A DNA stretch of 40,339 nt, taken from the UHGV virus genome UHGV-0008619; one strand, 5' to 3'. Positions 1,998 through 23,399 of this stretch are shown here, in pieces. The stretch comes from a virus. The position numbers were made by a program, and so were the translations under genes. A model generated the notes under the pieces. That model did not search any database. It saw only the letters and a list, made by a program, of their open reading frames with translations, and had not been told where the DNA came from. Each line of letters opens with the position of its first letter. Positions within the stretch are counted from its first letter, which is position 1.

Positions 1998-4448
1998 ATG
2001 GTAACTGAGCAAATAAACTCACTACGGCAGGAACGTGAGGCGTCAGTTATCGGCGGGCTGCTGTTAGGCGGCCTAACTCCTAACGCGCAAGATGTTCTCG
2101 CCACGCTTGATCCTGAAGTGTTCACAATCCCGCTCTATAGACGTGCGTTTGAAGTTATCCGGGCGCAAGCCAGAAACAGGAATCTTATCGACGCGTTGCT
2201 TGTTGGCGATGAGATTGGCAATGAAAATTTCGTACCTCTAATGCAAACGGCGCGTTCGTGCCCTTCTGCTGCCAACCTGAAGGGGTACGCACAGCTACTA
2301 CGTGAAGAGCACCAGCGGCGGCAGATGTTGGAACTCATCGACGATATGCGTTACAAGCTGGAAACAGGTACGCTTGAGGTCGTCAAAGAGACGATGAAGG
2401 ATTTTGATTCCCGATATTCAAAATTAAAGGTAACGAAAGACAAGATCATTCCGGTGTTGTTGCGCGATGCGGTACAGGAATATACGGATGTTTTAAGCAA
2501 GCGCATGGAATGCGGTGTTAATTCTGACAACATCAAAACAGGTATTGACCCGCTCGATGAAATGTTAGGCGGCATTAACGCTACTGATTTGGTACTTCTC
2601 GCCGGACGCCCTGGGTCTGGTAAAGCGCTAAAAAACAGTGAAAAAATACTGCTTGAAAATGGAGAATGGACTACTCATGGCAAAGTTAAGGTTGGTGATG
2701 TCATCGCATCAATAGACGGCAAGCCCTCTGTTGTTACAGGTGTCTTTCCTCAAGGCGTTAGGGATATTTACGAAATTGAATTCGAAGACGGTAGAAAAAT
2801 TGATAGCGCTGATTGCCATTTGTGGGAAATAAGTAGTACGAAGTGGAACGCTCCACGTGTAGTCGATACTGTCGGACTTAATGATTTACTTAGCAAGGTA
2901 CGCTATCAAGGCCGTGTACATATCCCTGTTTTTGGTGGCGATTGCGGTATTGACAATAATATCGGCATTGATCCGTGGTTGCTTGGCGCTCTTATAGGTG
3001 ATGGTTGCTTATCACATAGTGGCGTAAGTATTAGCTGCGGTCAGGATTACATACTTAACCGCGTTAAACTTACTTGCTGCGATCTTGATGTTAAGCGAAT
3101 TGGTAGTAATCAATATGATTACCGCATTACTGCAAAAGGAAGAGGATGCAAAAACCATCTGATCGATGCGCTTGGTAAAATGGGGCTTTATGGTAAGCAT
3201 TCATGGGAAAAATTTATTCCGGATATTATTTATTCATCAAGTAAAAATATCAGGCTGGGCGTGCTCGTTGGGCTACTTGAAACTGATGGTTGGATTGAAA
3301 AAAAAGGGAGTTTGTATTATGCGTCATGTAGCAAATCGTTAACAAACGATGTGATTCGTCTTGCTAGATCACTTGGCGGGTGCGGGCACATGAGAGTAAA
3401 AAATAATGTTACTTTCTCATACAAGGGAGAAAAAAGAATTGGTAGGGATTCTTATATTGCGACGTTAAAACTTCCTGACTGGGTTTTAGCAAAAATAGAA
3501 CACCCTCGTCTAAAATCAAGATTACCAGAAAACAGGATGTATAAACACGGATTGCAAATTAAATCAGTTACGTTTAAAGGTAAGGAGGAATGCACATGTA
3601 TTATGGTTAGCCATGATAGTCACCTTTATATTACTTCTGACTATATCGTTACACATAATACATCTCTTGCATTAAAGATAGCTCAACAAGCTGCTATGCG
3701 CCCATATCCAGGCATGGAAGGTCAGCGGGTAGGCGTTTTGCTGTTTACGCTTGAAATGTCACTCGATCAGATGACTGAGCGTGCTATAGCTGGCGCTGGC
3801 AATTTATCAACTGACTGCCTGCGCAATCCGGTAAAACTTGATGATGAGGGGTGGGCGCATGTCGGCCAGGGTATGAGCGCACTTGCTAATCTTGATGTGT
3901 GGATCGTTGACGCGTCGCAGTTAACGGTTGAGGAAATACGCGCAACAACGGAACGCATGAAACAGGATCACCCAAATTTGGGTATGGTAATGATTGACTA
4001 TATCGGTTTAATGAAGCTGGCTAAAGCCGAACGTCACGATCTCGCCGTGGGGCAATTATCGTGGTCGTTAAAGATGATGGCGAAAGAATTGCGCGTACCA
4101 GTGTTGGCACTGGCGCAATTATCACGCCGAGTTGAGGAACGACCGAACAAGCGCCCTAACAATTCTGATCTTCGTGATTCTGGCAACCTTGAGCAAGATG
4201 CCGACAGGATCATCATGGTTTACCGCGATGGGTATTACGACGAACAGTCTGTTGCCCGCGAATATATGGAAATCATTGTGTCAAAAAACCGTCATGGTAA
4301 GTCTGGAACTGTTTACCAGCGGTTTGATGACAACGGTAATATCTTGCCATGCGACCAGGCTCGCGCAGCCGCCGCGTGTATTCAGTCAATGAATCATCGC
4401 ACAAGCCGTTTTAACCAACGAAACAATCAGAATAACACATCTTTTTAA
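1998..4448 (+). CDS. DnaB-like replicative helicase, intein-containing
   Basis: GGAGG RBS; Walker A GRPGSGK interrupted and resumed as TSLALKIA; downstream helicase motifs FTLEMS, DYIGLM, NRHGKSG; 816 aa because of a 345 aa insertion. Confidence 0.9.
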   Translation: MVTEQINSLRQEREASVIGGLLLGGLTPNAQDVLATLDPEVFTIPLYRRAFEVIRAQARNRNLIDALLVGDEIGNENFVPLMQTARSCPSAANLKGYAQLLREEHQRRQMLELIDDMRYKLETGTLEVVKETMKDFDSRYSKLKVTKDKIIPVLLRDAVQEYTDVLSKRMECGVNSDNIKTGIDPLDEMLGGINATDLVLLAGRPGSGKALKNSEKILLENGEWTTHGKVKVGDVIASIDGKPSVVTGVFPQGVRDIYEIEFEDGRKIDSADCHLWEISSTKWNAPRVVDTVGLNDLLSKVRYQGRVHIPVFGGDCGIDNNIGIDPWLLGALIGDGCLSHSGVSISCGQDYILNRVKLTCCDLDVKRIGSNQYDYRITAKGRGCKNHLIDALGKMGLYGKHSWEKFIPDIIYSSSKNIRLGVLVGLLETDGWIEKKGSLYYASCSKSLTNDVIRLARSLGGCGHMRVKNNVTFSYKGEKRIGRDSYIATLKLPDWVLAKIEHPRLKSRLPENRMYKHGLQIKSVTFKGKEECTCIMVSHDSHLYITSDYIVTHNTSLALKIAQQAAMRPYPGMEGQRVGVLLFTLEMSLDQMTERAIAGAGNLSTDCLRNPVKLDDEGWAHVGQGMSALANLDVWIVDASQLTVEEIRATTERMKQDHPNLGMVMIDYIGLMKLAKAERHDLAVGQLSWSLKMMAKELRVPVLALAQLSRRVEERPNKRPNNSDLRDSGNLEQDADRIIMVYRDGYYDEQSVAREYMEIIVSKNRHGKSGTVYQRFDDNGNILPCDQARAAAACIQSMNHRTSRFNQRNNQNNTSF
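2625..3659 (+). mobile_element. Intein with LAGLIDADG homing endonuclease domain inserted in helicase P-loop
   Basis: Insertion between GSGK and T of Walker A; two LAGLIDADG-type motifs (LLGALIGDGCL, LVGLLETDGWI); ends THN followed by Thr +1; starts with Ala not Cys/Ser. Confidence 0.8.
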
Positions 4449-17241: not shown

Positions 17242-17472
17242 ATGGTTAACAAAATGGCGCGGAGGTGTGAGGTGGATGATAAGGTGTGGAGGTTGACGGT
17301 GTTCCTTAGTGATGGCAGGGAAATGACTGTTGCCCTGTATAAAGATGAAGGCGAGGCACTTACTGACGCGCTATTACTCGCTGAAGACGAAAGGGTTTTG
17401 GGGTACAGGATTAAACCTGTCAAATGGGAGGTTAACAAAAAATGCAAAAATACAGTCTTGACGTGTGGTTAA
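17242..17472 (+). CDS. hypothetical protein (cassette gene 1)
   Basis: ATG 17242 with AAGGAAG RBS; 76 aa. Confidence 0.5.
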   Translation: MVNKMARRCEVDDKVWRLTVFLSDGREMTVALYKDEGEALTDALLLAEDERVLGYRIKPVKWEVNKKCKNTVLTCG

Positions 17473-17789
17473 GTGGTTACAAGGAGTGTTTTGGATTATT
17501 TGATAGCGAAGAAGTAGCCCTTGAAGAAGGAAGGATTCTTGAATGTAGTTTAGGCCATCCGGTGAAATATGCTGCTAATCCGGTGCAGGTAATTGATGAG
17601 GTGGAAAACATGAACCCGAAAGATATTAACTTTAACGTCAATGTTGAATTTGCTGACTCTATGGATCAGGCTTGCCCTGGTGAAATACACGCAAAAGGTT
17701 TCCCGGCAGACGATCCGCAAGCAAAACGCGAATACGAAAAAGCTGCGAAAGACTTCTGTATAGATAACTTAAGTTGCTTTGATAAATAG
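17442..17789 (+). CDS. hypothetical protein (cassette gene 2)
   Basis: GGGAGG RBS before ATG 17442; 115 aa, acidic. Confidence 0.55.
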   Translation: MQKYSLDVWLSGYKECFGLFDSEEVALEEGRILECSLGHPVKYAANPVQVIDEVENMNPKDINFNVNVEFADSMDQACPGEIHAKGFPADDPQAKREYEKAAKDFCIDNLSCFDK

Positions 17790-17797
17790 GCGGCAAT

Positions 17798-18046
17798 ATG
17801 GGGCGGCGCAATCACGGCGATTATGTGTACACGTTGAAACAGGCCGCCCGCCTCATCGGTTATCATGAGCACGAATTTATTGATTTGCTGATTGAGCGCG
17901 GGATACTGTACCAGGTCTGTTTAACGCTGTACCCAAAAGCGAAATACCTACAGGAAAAGTTATTTATCATCATGACGGACGAAAACCAGGTTAATCATTC
18001 ATTCGTCACTGATAAGGGCGTTAATTATCTGCGTGATAACTTATAG
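17798..18046 (+). CDS. hypothetical protein with HTH-like segment (cassette gene 3)
   Basis: 82 aa; segment YTLKQAARLIGYHEHEFIDLLIERGIL looks HTH-like. Confidence 0.5.
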   Translation: MGRRNHGDYVYTLKQAARLIGYHEHEFIDLLIERGILYQVCLTLYPKAKYLQEKLFIIMTDENQVNHSFVTDKGVNYLRDNL

Positions 18047-18396: not shown

Positions 18397-18750
18397 TTAA
18401 TTAATAACTTGCTCAAACGTTGCGTTTAGTGTGTACACAGGCCCGTCTTTGGTCATACTCCAGTTACGACAAACGAAAAGCCTTTGCACCCCATCCATCG
18501 AAGGCGTCCAGTAGAAAGCATCGACAGCGCCTCGCGCCCTCAAGAATGCTTCTGCCTGGATCGCTACATTCCCACTATCACCGCATCCGGCGCTACTGCC
18601 TTTAAAAACCAGGGTATAACTATCAAGTAATGTGTTAATCCCTTTCGCCTGCCTTTGTTCATAGTTGTCACCAAGTTTAATGACAGATACGTTTGGTTCC
18701 CTGGTCACGCTGTAGCTTCTTTGCGGCGTCCATCTGAAAACTTCCGGCAT
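18397..18750 (-). CDS. minor tail protein M-like
   Basis: 117 aa; FRW near N-terminus and C-terminal FEQVIN match lambda M pattern; GGGGG RBS. Confidence 0.8.
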   Translation of the reverse strand: MPEVFRWTPQRSYSVTREPNVSVIKLGDNYEQRQAKGINTLLDSYTLVFKGSSAGCGDSGNVAIQAEAFLRARGAVDAFYWTPSMDGVQRLFVCRNWSMTKDGPVYTLNATFEQVIN

Positions 18751-18773
18751 GATTCCCCCTATAAGTTACATAT

Positions 18774-18814
18774 TGCATACATCTTTACGCGTTGCTACGC
18801 GAAAAATGAGAAAT
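18774..18814. repeat. conserved ~40-bp element, copy 1 (upstream of M)
   Basis: TGCATACATCTTTACGCGTTGCTACGCGAAAAATGAG; near-identical to 31521..31560; contains hairpin CGCGT-TGCT-ACGCG. Confidence 0.6.
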
Positions 18815-18849
18815 TCATCACAAGAATTATAACCAGTTTACAAAATGGC

Positions 18850-18878
18850 TTCACATAAGGCGTGACAAGATGTATATA
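18850..18878 (+). promoter_or_regulatory. candidate promoter (TTCACA-17-TATATA) for M-H intergenic cluster
   Basis: -35/-10-like hexamers with 17-bp spacer about 40 nt upstream of ATG 18920. Confidence 0.35.
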
Positions 18879-18919
18879 GTAAGCAAGAAGAAAAAGCAGT
18901 ACCGACAAGGGGGGGCAAT

Positions 18920-19075
18920 ATGGAACGCTATGTGGTTGTGATGCTGAACAAAGCATTCGAACAGGTGGAAGTTGCGATTGTGAAGGGCTTTGATGATGCA
19001 TTCAAATACGGTCAATTCATGATGAATGCAAAAGAAGATGAATACCGTGATTTCTTCCTGAAAGTGGTCAACTAA
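18920..19075 (+). CDS. small hypothetical protein (51 aa)
   Basis: GGGGGG RBS before ATG 18920; below ORF-track cutoff. Confidence 0.4.
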   Translation: MERYVVVMLNKAFEQVEVAIVKGFDDAFKYGQFMMNAKEDEYRDFFLKVVN

Positions 19076-19093
19076 TGGATTGCGGGGTGGGTT

Positions 19094-19348
19094 ATGAAAT
19101 TGGTAGCGATTGGTAAAAACCTGAAAGCACAGAAAAACGCACAGGACCGGATCATCAAAAAGGGCAAGGCTTTATTAAATGCTTTCCTGAAAAAAGAGGC
19201 CAACCCCAAAAAATTACGCGATGGCTACGGTTATAAATTTGACATCAACCCCGATTGGCGGTTATTCAGCGAAGATTTAAAGATGTGGTTAATTATTGAC
19301 CACCTGGAATATAACAGGCACTGTGGGGTGAAAGGGGCGCATAAGTAA
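19094..19348 (+). CDS. hypothetical basic protein
   Basis: 84 aa, Lys-rich; GGGGTGGG RBS before ATG 19094. Confidence 0.5.
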   Translation: MKLVAIGKNLKAQKNAQDRIIKKGKALLNAFLKKEANPKKLRDGYGYKFDINPDWRLFSEDLKMWLIIDHLEYNRHCGVKGAHK

Positions 19349-19462
19349 GGCGGGCATGAAGGGCGATAAATCCACCTGGCGGGAGAACTGGAATATTTGG
19401 TTGGTGATTTTTGTGAGGGTATATATCTCGCGGAATGGTCGGATATAAAAATGGGTGTGATT

Positions 19463-20395
19463 ATGGCGCGAAAAATGACACATGAAGAACATATTGCAGA
19501 TATAGCAAATGTCAATCCGCGTGTTGATATTTTAGGAGAAATTACAGGCTGCAATGATAAGGTGTTGTGTCGTTGCAGAGTTTGTAACCACGAATGGCGT
19601 ACTACGCCGCACAGCCTTAAGACTGGCAGGGGCTGCCCCGAATGTAAAAGAACAAAGATAGCACGAATAAAACAACTATCACATAACGATCATGTCGCTG
19701 CAATTGCTAATGTTAATCCATTTGTTGAAGTGCTAGAAAAAATTGTTAATGTAAAGAAAAAGATCACATGTCGTTGTAATAATTGCAAAAACATATGGAT
19801 GACTACGCCAAATGATCTCAAAAACGGTCACGGCTGTCCGAAATGCTCTGGCGTAGCGAAGCTGTCACATGAAGAGCAGATTGCAGCTATTGCGAAAGTT
19901 AACCAAAATGTTGAGGTAATAGGTAATATCGTTAATGACAAAACAAAAGTATCATGCTGCTGCAAGGTTTGTGGTCATGTGTGGTCGGCTACGCCTAACG
20001 ACCTTAAAAATGGGCGCGGCTGTCCGAAATGCGCGAAACGCGGGTTTTTATCCCACGATCACGGAAAACTTTACATCATGGTTGATGATCTGGAGGTGCC
20101 AACAATGATGAAAATCGGCGTGAGCGTTAAGGAGAACGAGCGAAGAAATAAAGTATTAAAAAGCGCACATAAAGCAGGTGTCAGAATCCCTGATTTGTAT
20201 GTCGCGAAAACGTGGGTGGGGCCAACTGAAAAAGTACAAGAATTAGAAAGCACGATGCATAAGGCTTTTAGCAATTATAAAATTAACTTTCCTGTAAAAT
20301 TTGATGGGAGTAATGAATTTTTCTACTACAGGCCGGAAGTATTCAGCATGGTAGAAAGTACATACAGTGATATTGTAAATAAAAATGCGGCATGA
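19463..20395 (+). CDS. protein with three tandem zinc-ribbon repeats and C-terminal T5orf172/GIY-YIG-like domain
   Basis: Three ~58 aa repeats each with C-x2-C ... GxGCPxC; C-terminal KLYIMVDD...KIGVS...ERRNKVL resembles T5orf172; start 19463 or 19451 (track start is TTG 19397). Confidence 0.6.
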   Translation: MARKMTHEEHIADIANVNPRVDILGEITGCNDKVLCRCRVCNHEWRTTPHSLKTGRGCPECKRTKIARIKQLSHNDHVAAIANVNPFVEVLEKIVNVKKKITCRCNNCKNIWMTTPNDLKNGHGCPKCSGVAKLSHEEQIAAIAKVNQNVEVIGNIVNDKTKVSCCCKVCGHVWSATPNDLKNGRGCPKCAKRGFLSHDHGKLYIMVDDLEVPTMMKIGVSVKENERRNKVLKSAHKAGVRIPDLYVAKTWVGPTEKVQELESTMHKAFSNYKINFPVKFDGSNEFFYYRPEVFSMVESTYSDIVNKNAA

Positions 20396-20435
20396 ATATT
20401 CAGCCCACCACCATTAGTGACGGGCTTATTCTTTG

Positions 20436-22643
20436 TTATCTTTTTCGTGGCTGTATAATCCCCCCGGGGCGCGTGCTCTGCTCCCTCACAACACCCATAG
20501 CAACCTTCTTCATCGTCTCTTGCAGTTTGGCGCTGTCCTGCTCGGTCCATCCGTTCTCGGCTGTTATGTTGATGGTAACAGGCATGTTGATGCCGCCACC
20601 GCCGCCAATATCACGGCCCGGAATGATACGACCGTTCTCGCCTGGGATCATGTACTGCCTACCGTTATTGGTCTGGAAAAGCTCGGGGACTTTGTTTTCA
20701 CCGACCCTATAAAGATTGCCACCATTAACCGCACCGCCGTTATAACGAGCACCAGCAAGCCCAAGCGCCTTAGCCCCAGCCACACCAGTGGCAAGACTCG
20801 TGCCCCCCACGGTCGCCGCTCCGCCCATCGTGGCAACGTTTGCCAGGTATGCAGGAGTGGCCCACGCAGAGCCTAATGCAGTAGCCTCGGCTAGTGCTTT
20901 AGCTGTTGCCGCAGCGCTGGCGGCCTCACCGATCAATTGCTGTTTAACCCATTCAGCCCCCATTTGAACAAGTGTACCGATAACGGAGGAAAGGATTGTA
21001 TTGCCAATGTTAGCCAGCGCCTGCTGCCAGCTTTGAGTACCGTTAACCAGGCCCACAAGCGCATTTGTTGCAGATCCGCCCATTGCATCAACGGTATCGC
21101 CCAACAGTTTGTAGCTCATTGACTGTGCTTTATATCGCTCCCATTCAAGGGTGAGCATTTCCTGTGCGTGTGCTCTTTCTTGTTCCCTCATATATTGCTC
21201 AGTAGCGCCAAGATCTTCCAGCATTTGCTTACGAACGGTCCATTCATTTTGCGCCTGCTGTATTGGGTCCAGCTCGCCGCGCTTCTGATCCAGTGAAGGA
21301 ATCATTTTGTCCCATTTTTCTTGCAGCCTATTGATCGGGTCGTTAATTTCTGCCAGAGTTTCGCGCAATTCATCACCGATTCCCTTCATTGCGCCTTTGT
21401 ATTCAAGCATGGTTATTTTCCCGGCTTTAAAGGCTGCATCTATGGCTTTTTGTGATTCAAGCGCTTTGCGCATTGCTGCTGAATCTTCGTTATATGCATC
21501 TGAAATGCGCACACCCTGTTCCGCAAGGCGCTCGGCTTCTGATTTGCCGGTTTTTTTACCTTTGCCATTCTTACCCTTACCACCAGGTTGAGGCTTAAAC
21601 GTTATGCGACTTACACCAGCTTGCCCCGTGGGGAGAGTGGAAACAAATGGCTGTTCTCCATCACCAAACCATCCAACCTGTTTCGCTTGAGCGCGGAACA
21701 AACTAAGCCCAGGTACTATCCCCTCAAACGCCCCAGCCAATAGCCACAATTTGTCAGTTAATGACGTGCTATCGCTCGCCAGGGACTTAAACCAACCGGA
21801 TAACATCTGAACTTCACTAGAAACAGCCTTTATACCAGTAACTACCAAATCAGACACCCCAAGCGCTTGGTTTAGCGTGTCAATTAACAGATCGAAGTTG
21901 TTTTTTAGCTCGTTAAATGCCTGATCTGTTGTTGTTGGCAGCTTTGCGAAGTCCTTCTCTATGTCTTCTGCTCCAGCAAGGATTGCGTTTGTAACATCCT
22001 CGGCGGTGAGCTTACCATCAAGCATTCTTGCGCGAAGTTCACCCATCGAGATCCCCATCTGTTTAGCGACGCGACGCCACACTTCCGGCATGTTTTCAAG
22101 CACAGAGTTGTATTCTTCCGCGCGAACAATGCCGCCAGTCAGTGACTGTCCTAACTGGCGAAGTGCGTTTGACATTTCATCTGAGGAGCTACCTCCGATA
22201 CGGCCTATTTTCTGAAGCGAGTCGGTAAGCTGCAATACCTGTTGACTTGTCGCACTGGTATCCTGTAGGCTGGCCTTTAGGCTTTCCCACAGCTTCCCGG
22301 TGCTTTGAACACTCATCCCTGTGCGATTCGATATCTGAATAATCCCGTCAAAATTCGATTTCGCGTCAGCAATGCCGCTTGATAGCCGCGTTACCCTGGC
22401 GCGTAGCAGATTTACGTTATCTGCGATCTCCAGGAATTTTTTTGCAGCCATGACCATCATTCCAATGTTCACAGCTTTGGATAACTTACTTATCGTGGTA
22501 TTAAGTGACTGCACTGATTTATCGGTACGTTTGGCACCTTGCTCGATTTTATCAAACGAGTCCTCAGCCTTGCGTTGAGCTACGAGTAACCGCTCGGTTT
22601 TTGCGTCAACGGTATACTCAATCGTGCCCACATTTGTTGTCAT
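20436..22643 (-). CDS. tail tape measure protein
   Basis: 735 aa, long helical/low-complexity Ala/Gly-rich protein, position between chaperone and M; GGAG RBS. Confidence 0.85.
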   Translation of the reverse strand: MTTNVGTIEYTVDAKTERLLVAQRKAEDSFDKIEQGAKRTDKSVQSLNTTISKLSKAVNIGMMVMAAKKFLEIADNVNLLRARVTRLSSGIADAKSNFDGIIQISNRTGMSVQSTGKLWESLKASLQDTSATSQQVLQLTDSLQKIGRIGGSSSDEMSNALRQLGQSLTGGIVRAEEYNSVLENMPEVWRRVAKQMGISMGELRARMLDGKLTAEDVTNAILAGAEDIEKDFAKLPTTTDQAFNELKNNFDLLIDTLNQALGVSDLVVTGIKAVSSEVQMLSGWFKSLASDSTSLTDKLWLLAGAFEGIVPGLSLFRAQAKQVGWFGDGEQPFVSTLPTGQAGVSRITFKPQPGGKGKNGKGKKTGKSEAERLAEQGVRISDAYNEDSAAMRKALESQKAIDAAFKAGKITMLEYKGAMKGIGDELRETLAEINDPINRLQEKWDKMIPSLDQKRGELDPIQQAQNEWTVRKQMLEDLGATEQYMREQERAHAQEMLTLEWERYKAQSMSYKLLGDTVDAMGGSATNALVGLVNGTQSWQQALANIGNTILSSVIGTLVQMGAEWVKQQLIGEAASAAATAKALAEATALGSAWATPAYLANVATMGGAATVGGTSLATGVAGAKALGLAGARYNGGAVNGGNLYRVGENKVPELFQTNNGRQYMIPGENGRIIPGRDIGGGGGINMPVTINITAENGWTEQDSAKLQETMKKVAMGVVREQSTRPGGIIQPRKR

Positions 22644-22901: not shown

Positions 22902-23399
22902 ATGAAACGGTTAGTAAAAGTCGCGGTAGCTGCGGTCATGGCAATATTCGCGGTCAATGCAAATGCAAGTAATAAAGTCAGCAAGATGTGCGACGCTATT
23001 TATCCAGCCTACGAAAAAGCATATACAATGGCAAATGTAAACTTTTTTTCAATTGGTAGGCACGGCGTTAACTGGGAGTATTTCATCTTAAATAAAGATA
23101 GCAGGACCAAAAAGAGTGACGCTAAAATGATAAAAGCGCACAGTGAAAGTTTCGCTCACATGATGGCTGTTATTGAAAACAAAGAAAATGACAATGAATT
23201 TAAAAACTTTGTCGCCGGACTTGCCATCATGGCTGCCGAACGGGCGATAAAGGATCACGACAATAACGCTTATGCCGCTGCCGACGAGATGGCATTAGAT
23301 AGGGTAAGAATTGACTTCAAAAACATGTGCATCAAAGAAGGCGCTAACATGTATAAAAAAGTAATAGATAAACACCACGAATATTATATAGGTTATTAA
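22902..23399 (+). CDS. secreted/periplasmic hypothetical protein (moron)
   Basis: 165 aa with N-terminal signal peptide MKRLVKVAVAAVMAIFAVNANA; on opposite strand within tail operon; followed by terminator. Confidence 0.65.
   Translation: MKRLVKVAVAAVMAIFAVNANASNKVSKMCDAIYPAYEKAYTMANVNFFSIGRHGVNWEYFILNKDSRTKKSDAKMIKAHSESFAHMMAVIENKENDNEFKNFVAGLAIMAAERAIKDHDNNAYAAADEMALDRVRIDFKNMCIKEGANMYKKVIDKHHEYYIGY

Follow-up and report, generated by a model that had tools for sequence, protein, structure and literature searches.

We analysed the viral genome UHGV-0008619, a stretch of 40,339 nucleotides hereafter called the window, and describe an opposite-strand island in its tail operon that ends in a gene for a 310-amino-acid (aa) protein combining three zinc ribbons with a T5orf172 domain of the GIY-YIG superfamily. 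The window is that of a temperate siphophage of the mEp021/mEpimmI group: its nucleotide identity to the Escherichia phages mEp010, mEp013, mEp515, mEp021, and MagusPhagus is 86-93% across most of its length, and its integrase gene adjoins the tail-fibre genes, which is the arrangement of such a genome in its phage form. The island lies between an M-like minor tail gene and the gene for the tape measure protein (TMP), and consists of four plus-strand open reading frames (ORFs) for products of 51, 84, 30, and 310 aa, separated by gaps of 18, 7, and 14 nt (Table 1). Its GC content is about 40%, as against about 50% for the tail genes. An earlier reading of the sequence alone (the original prediction) had placed a three-gene opposite-strand cluster between M and the TMP gene; its position and strand hold, but there are four ORFs, that of 30 aa having been missed. 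Below we argue that the 310-aa ORF is probably a free-standing homing endonuclease gene of the T5orf172 class.

Table 1. Features of the plus-strand island and its flanks, in window coordinates
Feature	Position	Strand	Evidence or remark
M-like minor tail gene	18397-18750	-	Pfam Phage_min_tail, 2.7e-28
Conserved intergenic stretch, flanked by the divergently oriented M-like and 51-aa genes	18751-18919	+	90% mean identity, 8 phage/prophage genomes
Promoter-like TTCACA / TATATA, 17-nt spacer	18850-18855 / 18873-18878	+	9/12 consensus match, final T missing
G-rich ribosome-binding site	18910-18915	+	ahead of 51-aa gene
51-aa acidic protein	18920-19075	+	isoelectric point (pI) 4.85; full-length match to phrog_29810, E 1.7e-35
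84-aa basic protein, ParE-like toxin domain	19094-19348	+	pI 9.9; Pfam ParE_like (PF24732)
30-aa Trp-rich basic ORF, MKGDKSTWRENWNIWLVIFVRVYISRNGRI	19356-19448	+	conserved in relatives; stop codon at left edge of nuclease-gene insertion
310-aa protein, three zinc ribbons and T5orf172	19463-20395	+	Pfam, PHROGs, AlphaFold2
Zinc-ribbon repeat 1	19463-19672	+	aa 1-70; Cys 36, 38, 41, 58, 61; direct-repeat family D1
Zinc-ribbon repeat 2	19673-19861	+	aa 71-133; Cys 103, 105, 108, 125, 128
Zinc-ribbon repeat 3	19862-20050	+	aa 134-196; Cys 165, 167, 170, 187, 190
T5orf172 / GIY-YIG-fold nuclease domain	20051-20392	+	aa 197-310
Hairpin (20402-20426) and U-rich tract, likely terminator	20402-20445	+	fold -14.7 kcal/mol, z -2.4, then UUAUUCUUUGUUAUCUUUUU
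Last 35 TMP codons and stop	20436-20543	-	co-segregates with nuclease gene
TMP gene	20436-22643	-	Pfam TMP_3, 1.2e-52

The 310-aa protein and its family

We place the start of the 310-aa ORF at the ATG at 19463, which agrees with the N-termini of its homologues; a mechanical ORF call from the TTG at 19397 gives a product of 332 aa. Profile searches recover three stretches of the protein both with DUF4379, described as a 'probable treble clef zinc finger' (E 1.2e-17, 64.3 bits, cutoff 24.5), and with CapR (PF21817; E 4.4e-14, 52.8 bits, cutoff 24.2), and a tblastn self-match inside the gene reaches 48% identity (E 1.6e-38). The three tandem zinc ribbons of about 58 aa that had been predicted are thus right in number, but their periods are 67 and 62 aa (201 and 186 nt) around a conserved core of 57 aa. 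Each repeat opens with the motif [TS]-H-x2-[HQ]-[IV]-A-x-I-A-x-V-N and carries the cysteine pattern C-x-C-x2-C-x16-C-x2-C, with the second pair lying within G-C-P-x-C. The zinc-ligand cysteines are invariant or nearly so across 43 homologues and 376 unique repeats, and the conserved cysteine pairs of CapR are known to be required for its binding to DNA (Netter et al. 2021, PMC8096241). In an AlphaFold2 model built on the 43 homologues, every repeat folds as a helix followed by a small sheet of three strands and a second, short helix; the mean per-residue confidence (pLDDT) of the model is 86, and its low predicted template-modelling score (pTM 0.44) is expected of a beads-on-a-string architecture.

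The C-terminal region matches T5orf172 (PF10544) over residues 203-292 with 24.2 bits, against a gathering threshold of 20 (E 4.9e-5), so that all three of the T5orf172, DUF4379, and CapR profiles score above their Pfam gathering thresholds. The related MUG113 profile falls just under its cutoff (22.0 versus 22.3 bits), and the protein matches phrog_681, labelled 'endonuclease', at 3.8e-58. Residues 200-310 are modelled as a compact alpha/beta domain (pLDDT 90-95), the predicted fold of which matches the GIY-YIG nucleases SLX1 and I-TevI in a fold comparison. No link to the solved GIY-YIG enzymes could be made from sequence: searched against the PDB, a profile of the C-terminal region returned only noise, and hhalign to an approximate sequence of the I-TevI catalytic domain gave a probability of 0.1. 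The fold comparison alone gave a link. A Foldseek search of the PDB with the whole 310-aa model was dominated by matches of the zinc ribbons and did not find the nuclease fold. Among the 43 homologues Y204, K217, G219, S221, R227, E262, H266, and E285 are invariant, and of these Y204, R227, E262, and E285 sit in the expected secondary-structure elements; sequence alignment did not pair them with R27/E75 of I-TevI or E180 of Odn. Since the sequence comparison fails, we infer only from invariance and position in the predicted fold that Y204, R227, and E262/E285 may be the catalytic equivalents of the residues in those enzymes. Taken with the comparative genomics below, the profile matches and predicted fold support the core of the original prediction, namely that the protein joins a zinc-ribbon array to a T5orf172/GIY-YIG-like domain and would be a DNA-binding nuclease or a factor resembling a homing endonuclease.

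We recovered 390 significant homologues of the protein, the source names of which, where given, are mostly of E. coli. Their lengths cluster by the number of zinc ribbons; among the best 120 of the 390 hits, two ribbons are found in 19 proteins, three in 54, four in 38, five in 6, and six in 3, and the T5orf172 core motif is kept in all 120. The 376 unique 57-aa repeats share a conserved scaffold and vary in the stretch before the first cysteine cluster and at the positions after each zinc knuckle. Paralogues occupy a second site in related prophages, in the replication module between a replication protein gene and a gene pair ending in that for the DnaB helicase; these include mEp021_12 (495 aa) and a protein, P0069, for which the assembly collection has entries in 281 index blocks. 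More widely, 875 phage records contain relatives by tblastn; among them are rV5-like and T5-like lytic coliphages, in which some copies carry the annotation 'putative homing endonuclease'. A megablast search of 5,426 complete E. coli genomes gave no nucleotide-level copy of the gene (at least 85% identity), and a distant search of E. coli genomes found related copies in 12 only; the two of these with coordinates compared lie 35-36 kb from the M-like gene, which fits the replication-module site.

Occupancy of the site, its junctions, and the history of the gene

We compared the position downstream of the ParE-like 84-aa gene across ten curated relatives and 45 IMG/VR contigs, all of which have the ParE-like gene there. 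A zinc-ribbon/T5orf172 gene fills this slot in the window, in an E. coli assembly (GCA_026561015, locus L006; three repeats, 82% aa identity), in mEp013 (five repeats, 436 aa), and in mEp021 (five repeats), and in none of the 45 module-bearing IMG/VR loci. In mEp515 (locus L014, 3137-3643) and the IMG/VR locus L060 (4243-4746) a gene for a 168-aa HNH_3 endonuclease (8.4e-20) lies there instead, by virtue of which the slot is a hotspot for two unrelated endonuclease families. Small ORFs or nothing, and no endonuclease, are found in mEp010, mEp044, mEp554, MagusPhagus, E. coli 2-331, E. coli 190, and 44 of the 45 IMG/VR loci. The mEp021 copy (locus L002, 4261-5571) is annotated as two coding sequences and has two in-frame stops (…NIE*NPF*SASL…) in what is otherwise one open frame; either this copy is decaying or the repeat was misassembled, and the stops may be artefacts, the mEp021 sequence having been put together from SOLiD reads (PMC11893012).

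The left junction of the insertion is precise: homology to the nuclease-free E. coli 2-331 and to the IMG/VR locus L048 ends at 19449, one base past the stop of the 30-aa ORF and 14 nt before the nuclease ATG. The flanking genes are intact, with the 310-aa gene being followed by its own hairpin and then by the intact TMP stop codon. The original prediction of an accessory insertion in the tail operon is correct. Among the related phages the gene is sporadic at this one site (four genomes).

On the right side the pattern extends into the TMP gene. In L048, where the nuclease gene is absent, TMP is 93-99% identical to the window from about 20700 onward, and identity falls toward the TMP 3' end through 86%, 62%, 51%, and 37% in successive 100-nt intervals. 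Conversely, the TMP body of mEp021 is only about 50% identical to that of the window, yet the segment spanning the nuclease gene and the TMP 3' end (19865-20748) aligns at 69%; L048 and mEp021 are thus the informative recombinants in this comparison. At the nucleotide level the last 35 TMP codons match the window at 66-78% in the other three genomes with the gene, as against 49-52% in six gene-free ones, irrespective of whether the TMP body is 95% (L048) or about 50% (mEp021) identical, and the gene-bearing genomes share the C-terminal TMP motif VAMGV[VI][RK]EQS. This 3' flank is a candidate co-conversion tract or a candidate cleavage-resistant variant of the target (target immunity), but it is suggestive only, because the sample is small and non-independent and all genomes are hypervariable at TMP codons -100 to -36. 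Indeed, the C-terminal 100 or so TMP codons (20436-20740, minus strand) are far more divergent than the gene body in every pairwise comparison; between the window and L006 or mEp013 the body is 96% identical and codons -100 to -36 are 69% identical, and three distinct TMP C-terminal tail types occur among the relatives.

Against the L006 orthologue, the ratio of nonsynonymous to synonymous substitution rates (dN/dS) of the 310-aa gene is 0.18 overall, 0.17 in the ribbons, and 0.20 in the nuclease domain. This purifying selection indicates that the ORF is a real, functional coding sequence. Positive selection on the zinc ribbons was considered and rejected, the per-repeat ratios of 0.12-0.25 likewise being those of purifying selection. 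The synonymous divergence (dS) of the individual repeats has a sevenfold spread, with values of 1.24, 0.17, and 1.28 for repeats 1, 2, and 3; the low value of repeat 2 beside about 1.25 in the other two indicates mosaicism or shuffling at the level of repeats, with a recent swap of the single repeat 2 between copies.

Proposed homing and its alternatives

We posit that the three CapR/DUF4379-type zinc ribbons would act as a beads-on-a-string array for DNA recognition and the C-terminal T5orf172 domain as the DNA cutter. The enzyme would cut the nuclease-free allele during co-infection, or upon superinfection of a lysogen by a related phage, most plausibly in or near the TMP 3' end, after which recombinational repair, with the nuclease-bearing genome as template, would transfer the gene and the neighbouring TMP 3' end to the genome that was cut. 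The gene would have landed in a pre-existing opposite-strand 'moron' slot of the mEp021-like coliphages, directly downstream of a conserved module on which it does not depend. The domain identity, predicted fold, purifying selection, sporadic site-specific presence, precise junction, paralogues elsewhere, and flank co-segregation on which this proposal draws are shown by the analysis, while the nuclease activity, target site, homing, and expression timing are inferred from them.

Several points weigh against homing. The T5orf172 score is modest (24 bits), and sequence similarity to solved GIY-YIG enzymes is undetectable. The TMP flank pattern comes from four positive and six negative genomes that are phylogenetically non-independent, and the hypervariability of TMP codons -100 to -36 in all genomes may reflect selection on the tape measure protein instead of co-conversion. 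Classical phage homing has been shown mostly in lytic phages. Furthermore, a gene running opposite to the late operon behind a toxin-antitoxin (TA)-like pair has the typical layout of lysogen-expressed accessory (defence) genes.

That layout leads to the main alternative, in which the nuclease serves exclusion or defence, as a moron co-transcribed with the ParE-like module in the lysogen that cuts incoming heterologous phage DNA to the benefit of both host and prophage and not of the gene's own spread. The AT-rich composition, opposite orientation, and own terminator within a late operon are those of a classical moron, a TA-like pair adjoins, the T5orf172 region has weak PADLOC matches to the candidates PDC-S57 (1.6e-5, 22.7 bits) and PDC-S54, and in Odn a T5orf172 nuclease has been turned into a weapon (PMC8263062). 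Nevertheless, we regard this as fairly unlikely: no validated system model of PADLOC-DB was matched, the hits being limited to the generic nuclease domain, and the approximately ten contexts of the family that were examined are all in phages or prophages, at several sites and including lytic phages, with no chromosomal defence island among them. Moreover, the same slot accommodates another homing-endonuclease family, and the upstream module is kept in about 50 genomes that do not have the gene, which argues that module and nuclease gene are not a functional unit. Homing and exclusion are compatible, since relatives superinfecting a lysogen would be harmed as well if its prophage produced a homing endonuclease. 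In a more elaborate version, to which we give a low probability, the nuclease would double as an inter-phage weapon that is expressed in the lysogen and cuts the TMP 3' end of superinfecting mEp021-like phages lacking the resistant TMP tail; the two to six 57-aa modules, the hypervariable positions of which cluster at the zinc knuckles, would then constitute a re-assortable and re-programmable DNA-recognition code.

The remaining alternatives strike us as very improbable. The protein might be a domesticated regulator, in which the zinc-ribbon array binds an operator, for example that of the tail operon or one within 18751-18919, and no DNA is cut. I-TevI can act as an autorepressor, and the gene is convergent with late transcription. 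The CapR homology domain is matched, and CapR itself is a repressor derived from this class (PMC8096241), but one which has lost its nuclease domain, whereas the 310-aa protein keeps the full T5orf172 domain under purifying selection with all of the conserved polar residues invariant; its sporadic distribution also speaks against an integrated regulatory role. Just as improbable is a multi-gene TA or abortive-infection system in which the nuclease is an effector or third component alongside the 51-aa, 84-aa, and 30-aa products. The shared strand, short gaps, one candidate promoter region, and one terminator would suit such a system, but the nuclease gene is missing from every IMG/VR locus with the module and from further module-bearing curated relatives, and the replication-module paralogues have no such neighbours. 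A single functional unit of three or four genes was rejected on the former count (45 of 45 loci), and the unit of three genes implied by the original prediction falls with it: the module of the three small ORFs is found in nearly all relatives, and the nuclease gene is rare and separately mobile.

Among known systems, the gene that we interpret as a homing endonuclease gene is most readily compared with the T5orf172 homing endonuclease genes of ICP1 and other phages, about 87% of which have CapR, DUF723, or DUF4397 zinc fingers (Barth, Dunham & Seed 2023, PMC10448857). Those fingers are often repeated as 'beads on a string' with recombination between repeats, and the genes adjoin essential genes, including structural ones, and mark boundaries of genetic exchange (PMC10448857). 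With the ICP1-type genes (gp165 and gp174) the window gene shares an N-terminal array of CapR-type zinc fingers ahead of a C-terminal T5orf172 domain, a variable number of repeats with signs of recombination among them, several paralogues per phage lineage, and a location beside essential structural genes at the boundary of mosaic segments. It differs in its host, a temperate mEp021-like (mEpimmI) coliphage, and in its setting, a moron slot downstream of a ParE-like module, on the strand opposite to that of the late operon; the vibriophage members have less than 60% sequence identity to the 310-aa protein. The words 'temperate' and 'prophage' are absent from the text of the 2023 survey (PMC10448857), and homing endonucleases, zinc fingers, and morons all go unmentioned in the paper on the mEpimmI group.

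The CapR protein of the PLE satellites of Vibrio cholerae has a homologous zinc-finger domain (PF21817) with conserved cysteine pairs, of which the window protein has three copies; however, CapR is a single-domain transcriptional repressor with a CxxC...CxC pattern and no nuclease domain, whereas the window protein has kept T5orf172 and its three repeats are of the form CxCxxC...CxxC. Odn (ICP1 Gp88) is a T5orf172 nuclease that cuts DNA and is inactivated by the E180A substitution (Barth et al. 2021, PMC8263062), and it is the only T5orf172 nuclease reported as biochemically tested in PMC10448857, PMC8096241, and PMC8263062. Like the 310-aa protein, it couples a modular N-terminal DNA-targeting domain to a T5orf172 domain at the C-terminus, in which Arg and Glu are conserved; unlike it, Odn is an anti-satellite weapon that finds its target through a RepA_N domain copied from its satellite, and not through zinc ribbons. 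With I-TevI and the GIY-YIG and HNH enzymes of the T4 Seg/Mob type the protein shares a bipartite architecture of nuclease and DNA-binding parts, including a zinc finger, and a free-standing insertion between conserved genes, for which co-conversion of flanking markers would be expected. It has no detectable sequence similarity to them, its nuclease domain is C-terminal so that the domain order is reversed, and its DNA-binding part is a zinc-ribbon array instead of a helix-turn-helix.

These observations do not overturn the current understanding, the gene belonging to an already described class of selfish phage nucleases, but they would extend the recently described T5orf172/CapR-zinc-finger homing class from lytic vibriophages and coliphages to prevalent temperate gut coliphages of the mEpimmI group. 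They also define a single locus with occupied, empty, and HNH-occupied alleles in mEp013, mEp021, mEp515, and mEp010; as all four are isolated phages, homing and co-conversion can be directly tested in crosses. The two to six shuffled 57-aa modules, in turn, offer a possible entry to the DNA-recognition rules of the zinc-ribbon domain.

The ParE-like module, neighbouring elements, and other selfish nucleases

The module of the 51-aa, ParE-like 84-aa, and 30-aa ORFs is present in nearly all of the approximately 55 relatives examined, and its first two genes occur together in 43 of the 45 IMG/VR loci and in all curated relatives. The 84-aa protein matches the ParE_like profile with 45.6 bits (E 7e-12, cutoff 24.4); a profile comparison of it with the PDB matched nothing, and its predicted structure (pLDDT 60) is too uncertain for a meaningful fold search. 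The 51-aa protein has no Pfam match, but it is 80-100% identical in nearly all relatives, its gene has a dN/dS of 0.03, and it always lies 18-24 nt ahead of the ParE-like gene. Neither protein has a significant match in PADLOC-DB, and NCBIfam matches neither these two nor the 310-aa protein. The original prediction had called both small proteins basic, which is true of the 84-aa protein; the 51-aa one is acidic, as expected for an antitoxin, and we consider it a putative antitoxin-like partner. The pair looks like a type II TA system of the ParE/RelE kind, with a gene for a small acidic protein placed 18 nt ahead of that for a small basic ParE_like protein in an operon-like layout on a mobile element. 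It departs from that kind in that the putative toxin is shorter than canonical ParE, the 51-aa partner has no recognisable antitoxin domain, and a conserved third ORF follows the 84-aa gene. This 30-aa ORF, the product of which could be a third component of the module, has the consensus MxDDKFTWREIWNIWLVMFxRSYIxRNGRL among the relatives and is 60-73% identical in aa, with many synonymous differences, in mEp013, mEp021, MagusPhagus, L006, and about 30 IMG/VR loci. Six deposited phage genomes (mEp010, mEp013, mEp044, mEp515, mEp554, and MagusPhagus) have it annotated as a coding sequence of 93 bp, and in E. coli 2-331 it is frameshifted.

The non-coding region of about 170 nt upstream of the module contains long invariant blocks across the eight genomes compared. 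It is probably regulatory, given that it is far better conserved than the synonymous sites of the flanking genes, those of the adjoining M gene being saturated (dS 1.6). A consensus promoter scan flagged no plus-strand promoter, and the TTCACA/TATATA pair was not picked up by it either; the candidate promoter of the original prediction hence gains nothing from the scan, but a pair of this spacing and match to consensus does sit within the conserved block. An imperfect inverted repeat (18766-18785 / 18867-18886) was also observed inside this region. At the other end of the island, the hairpin and U-rich tract, which abut the TMP stop codon, are likely the intrinsic terminator of the plus-strand cluster; a simple terminator scan misses the hairpin because its loop is too long. 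An Rfam search of the whole window found no RNA families.

The window genome is colonised more generally by selfish nuclease elements, as two further cases in its replication module attest. Just upstream of the helicase gene a 202-aa plus-strand ORF (1355-1963) combines HNH_3 (1.9e-21) with a weak AP2 match; it is a further free-standing gene of the homing-endonuclease type. The DnaB-type helicase ORF itself (1998-4448, plus strand) codes for 816 aa, as against 471 aa in mEp021; its residues 211-554 form a 344-aa insert, which interrupts the Walker A motif (GRPGSGK / A...VTHN / TSLALK) and has a weak LAGLIDADG_3 match. This insert resembles an intein whose first residue is Ala and which contains a homing endonuclease domain.

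Two other opposite-strand islands were observed in the tail region of the window. One, at 17442-18046 (plus strand) between the L-like and M-like tail genes, is kept in the relatives and has an ORF of 115 aa without a Pfam match and one of 82 aa in which the match to the ANT/KilAC antirepressor domain (7.4e-7) is confined to the C-terminal part of that domain. The other, at 22902-23399 just past the TMP start, has a GC content of 38% and a plus-strand ORF of 165 aa without a Pfam match; at its position the relatives have other small ORFs.

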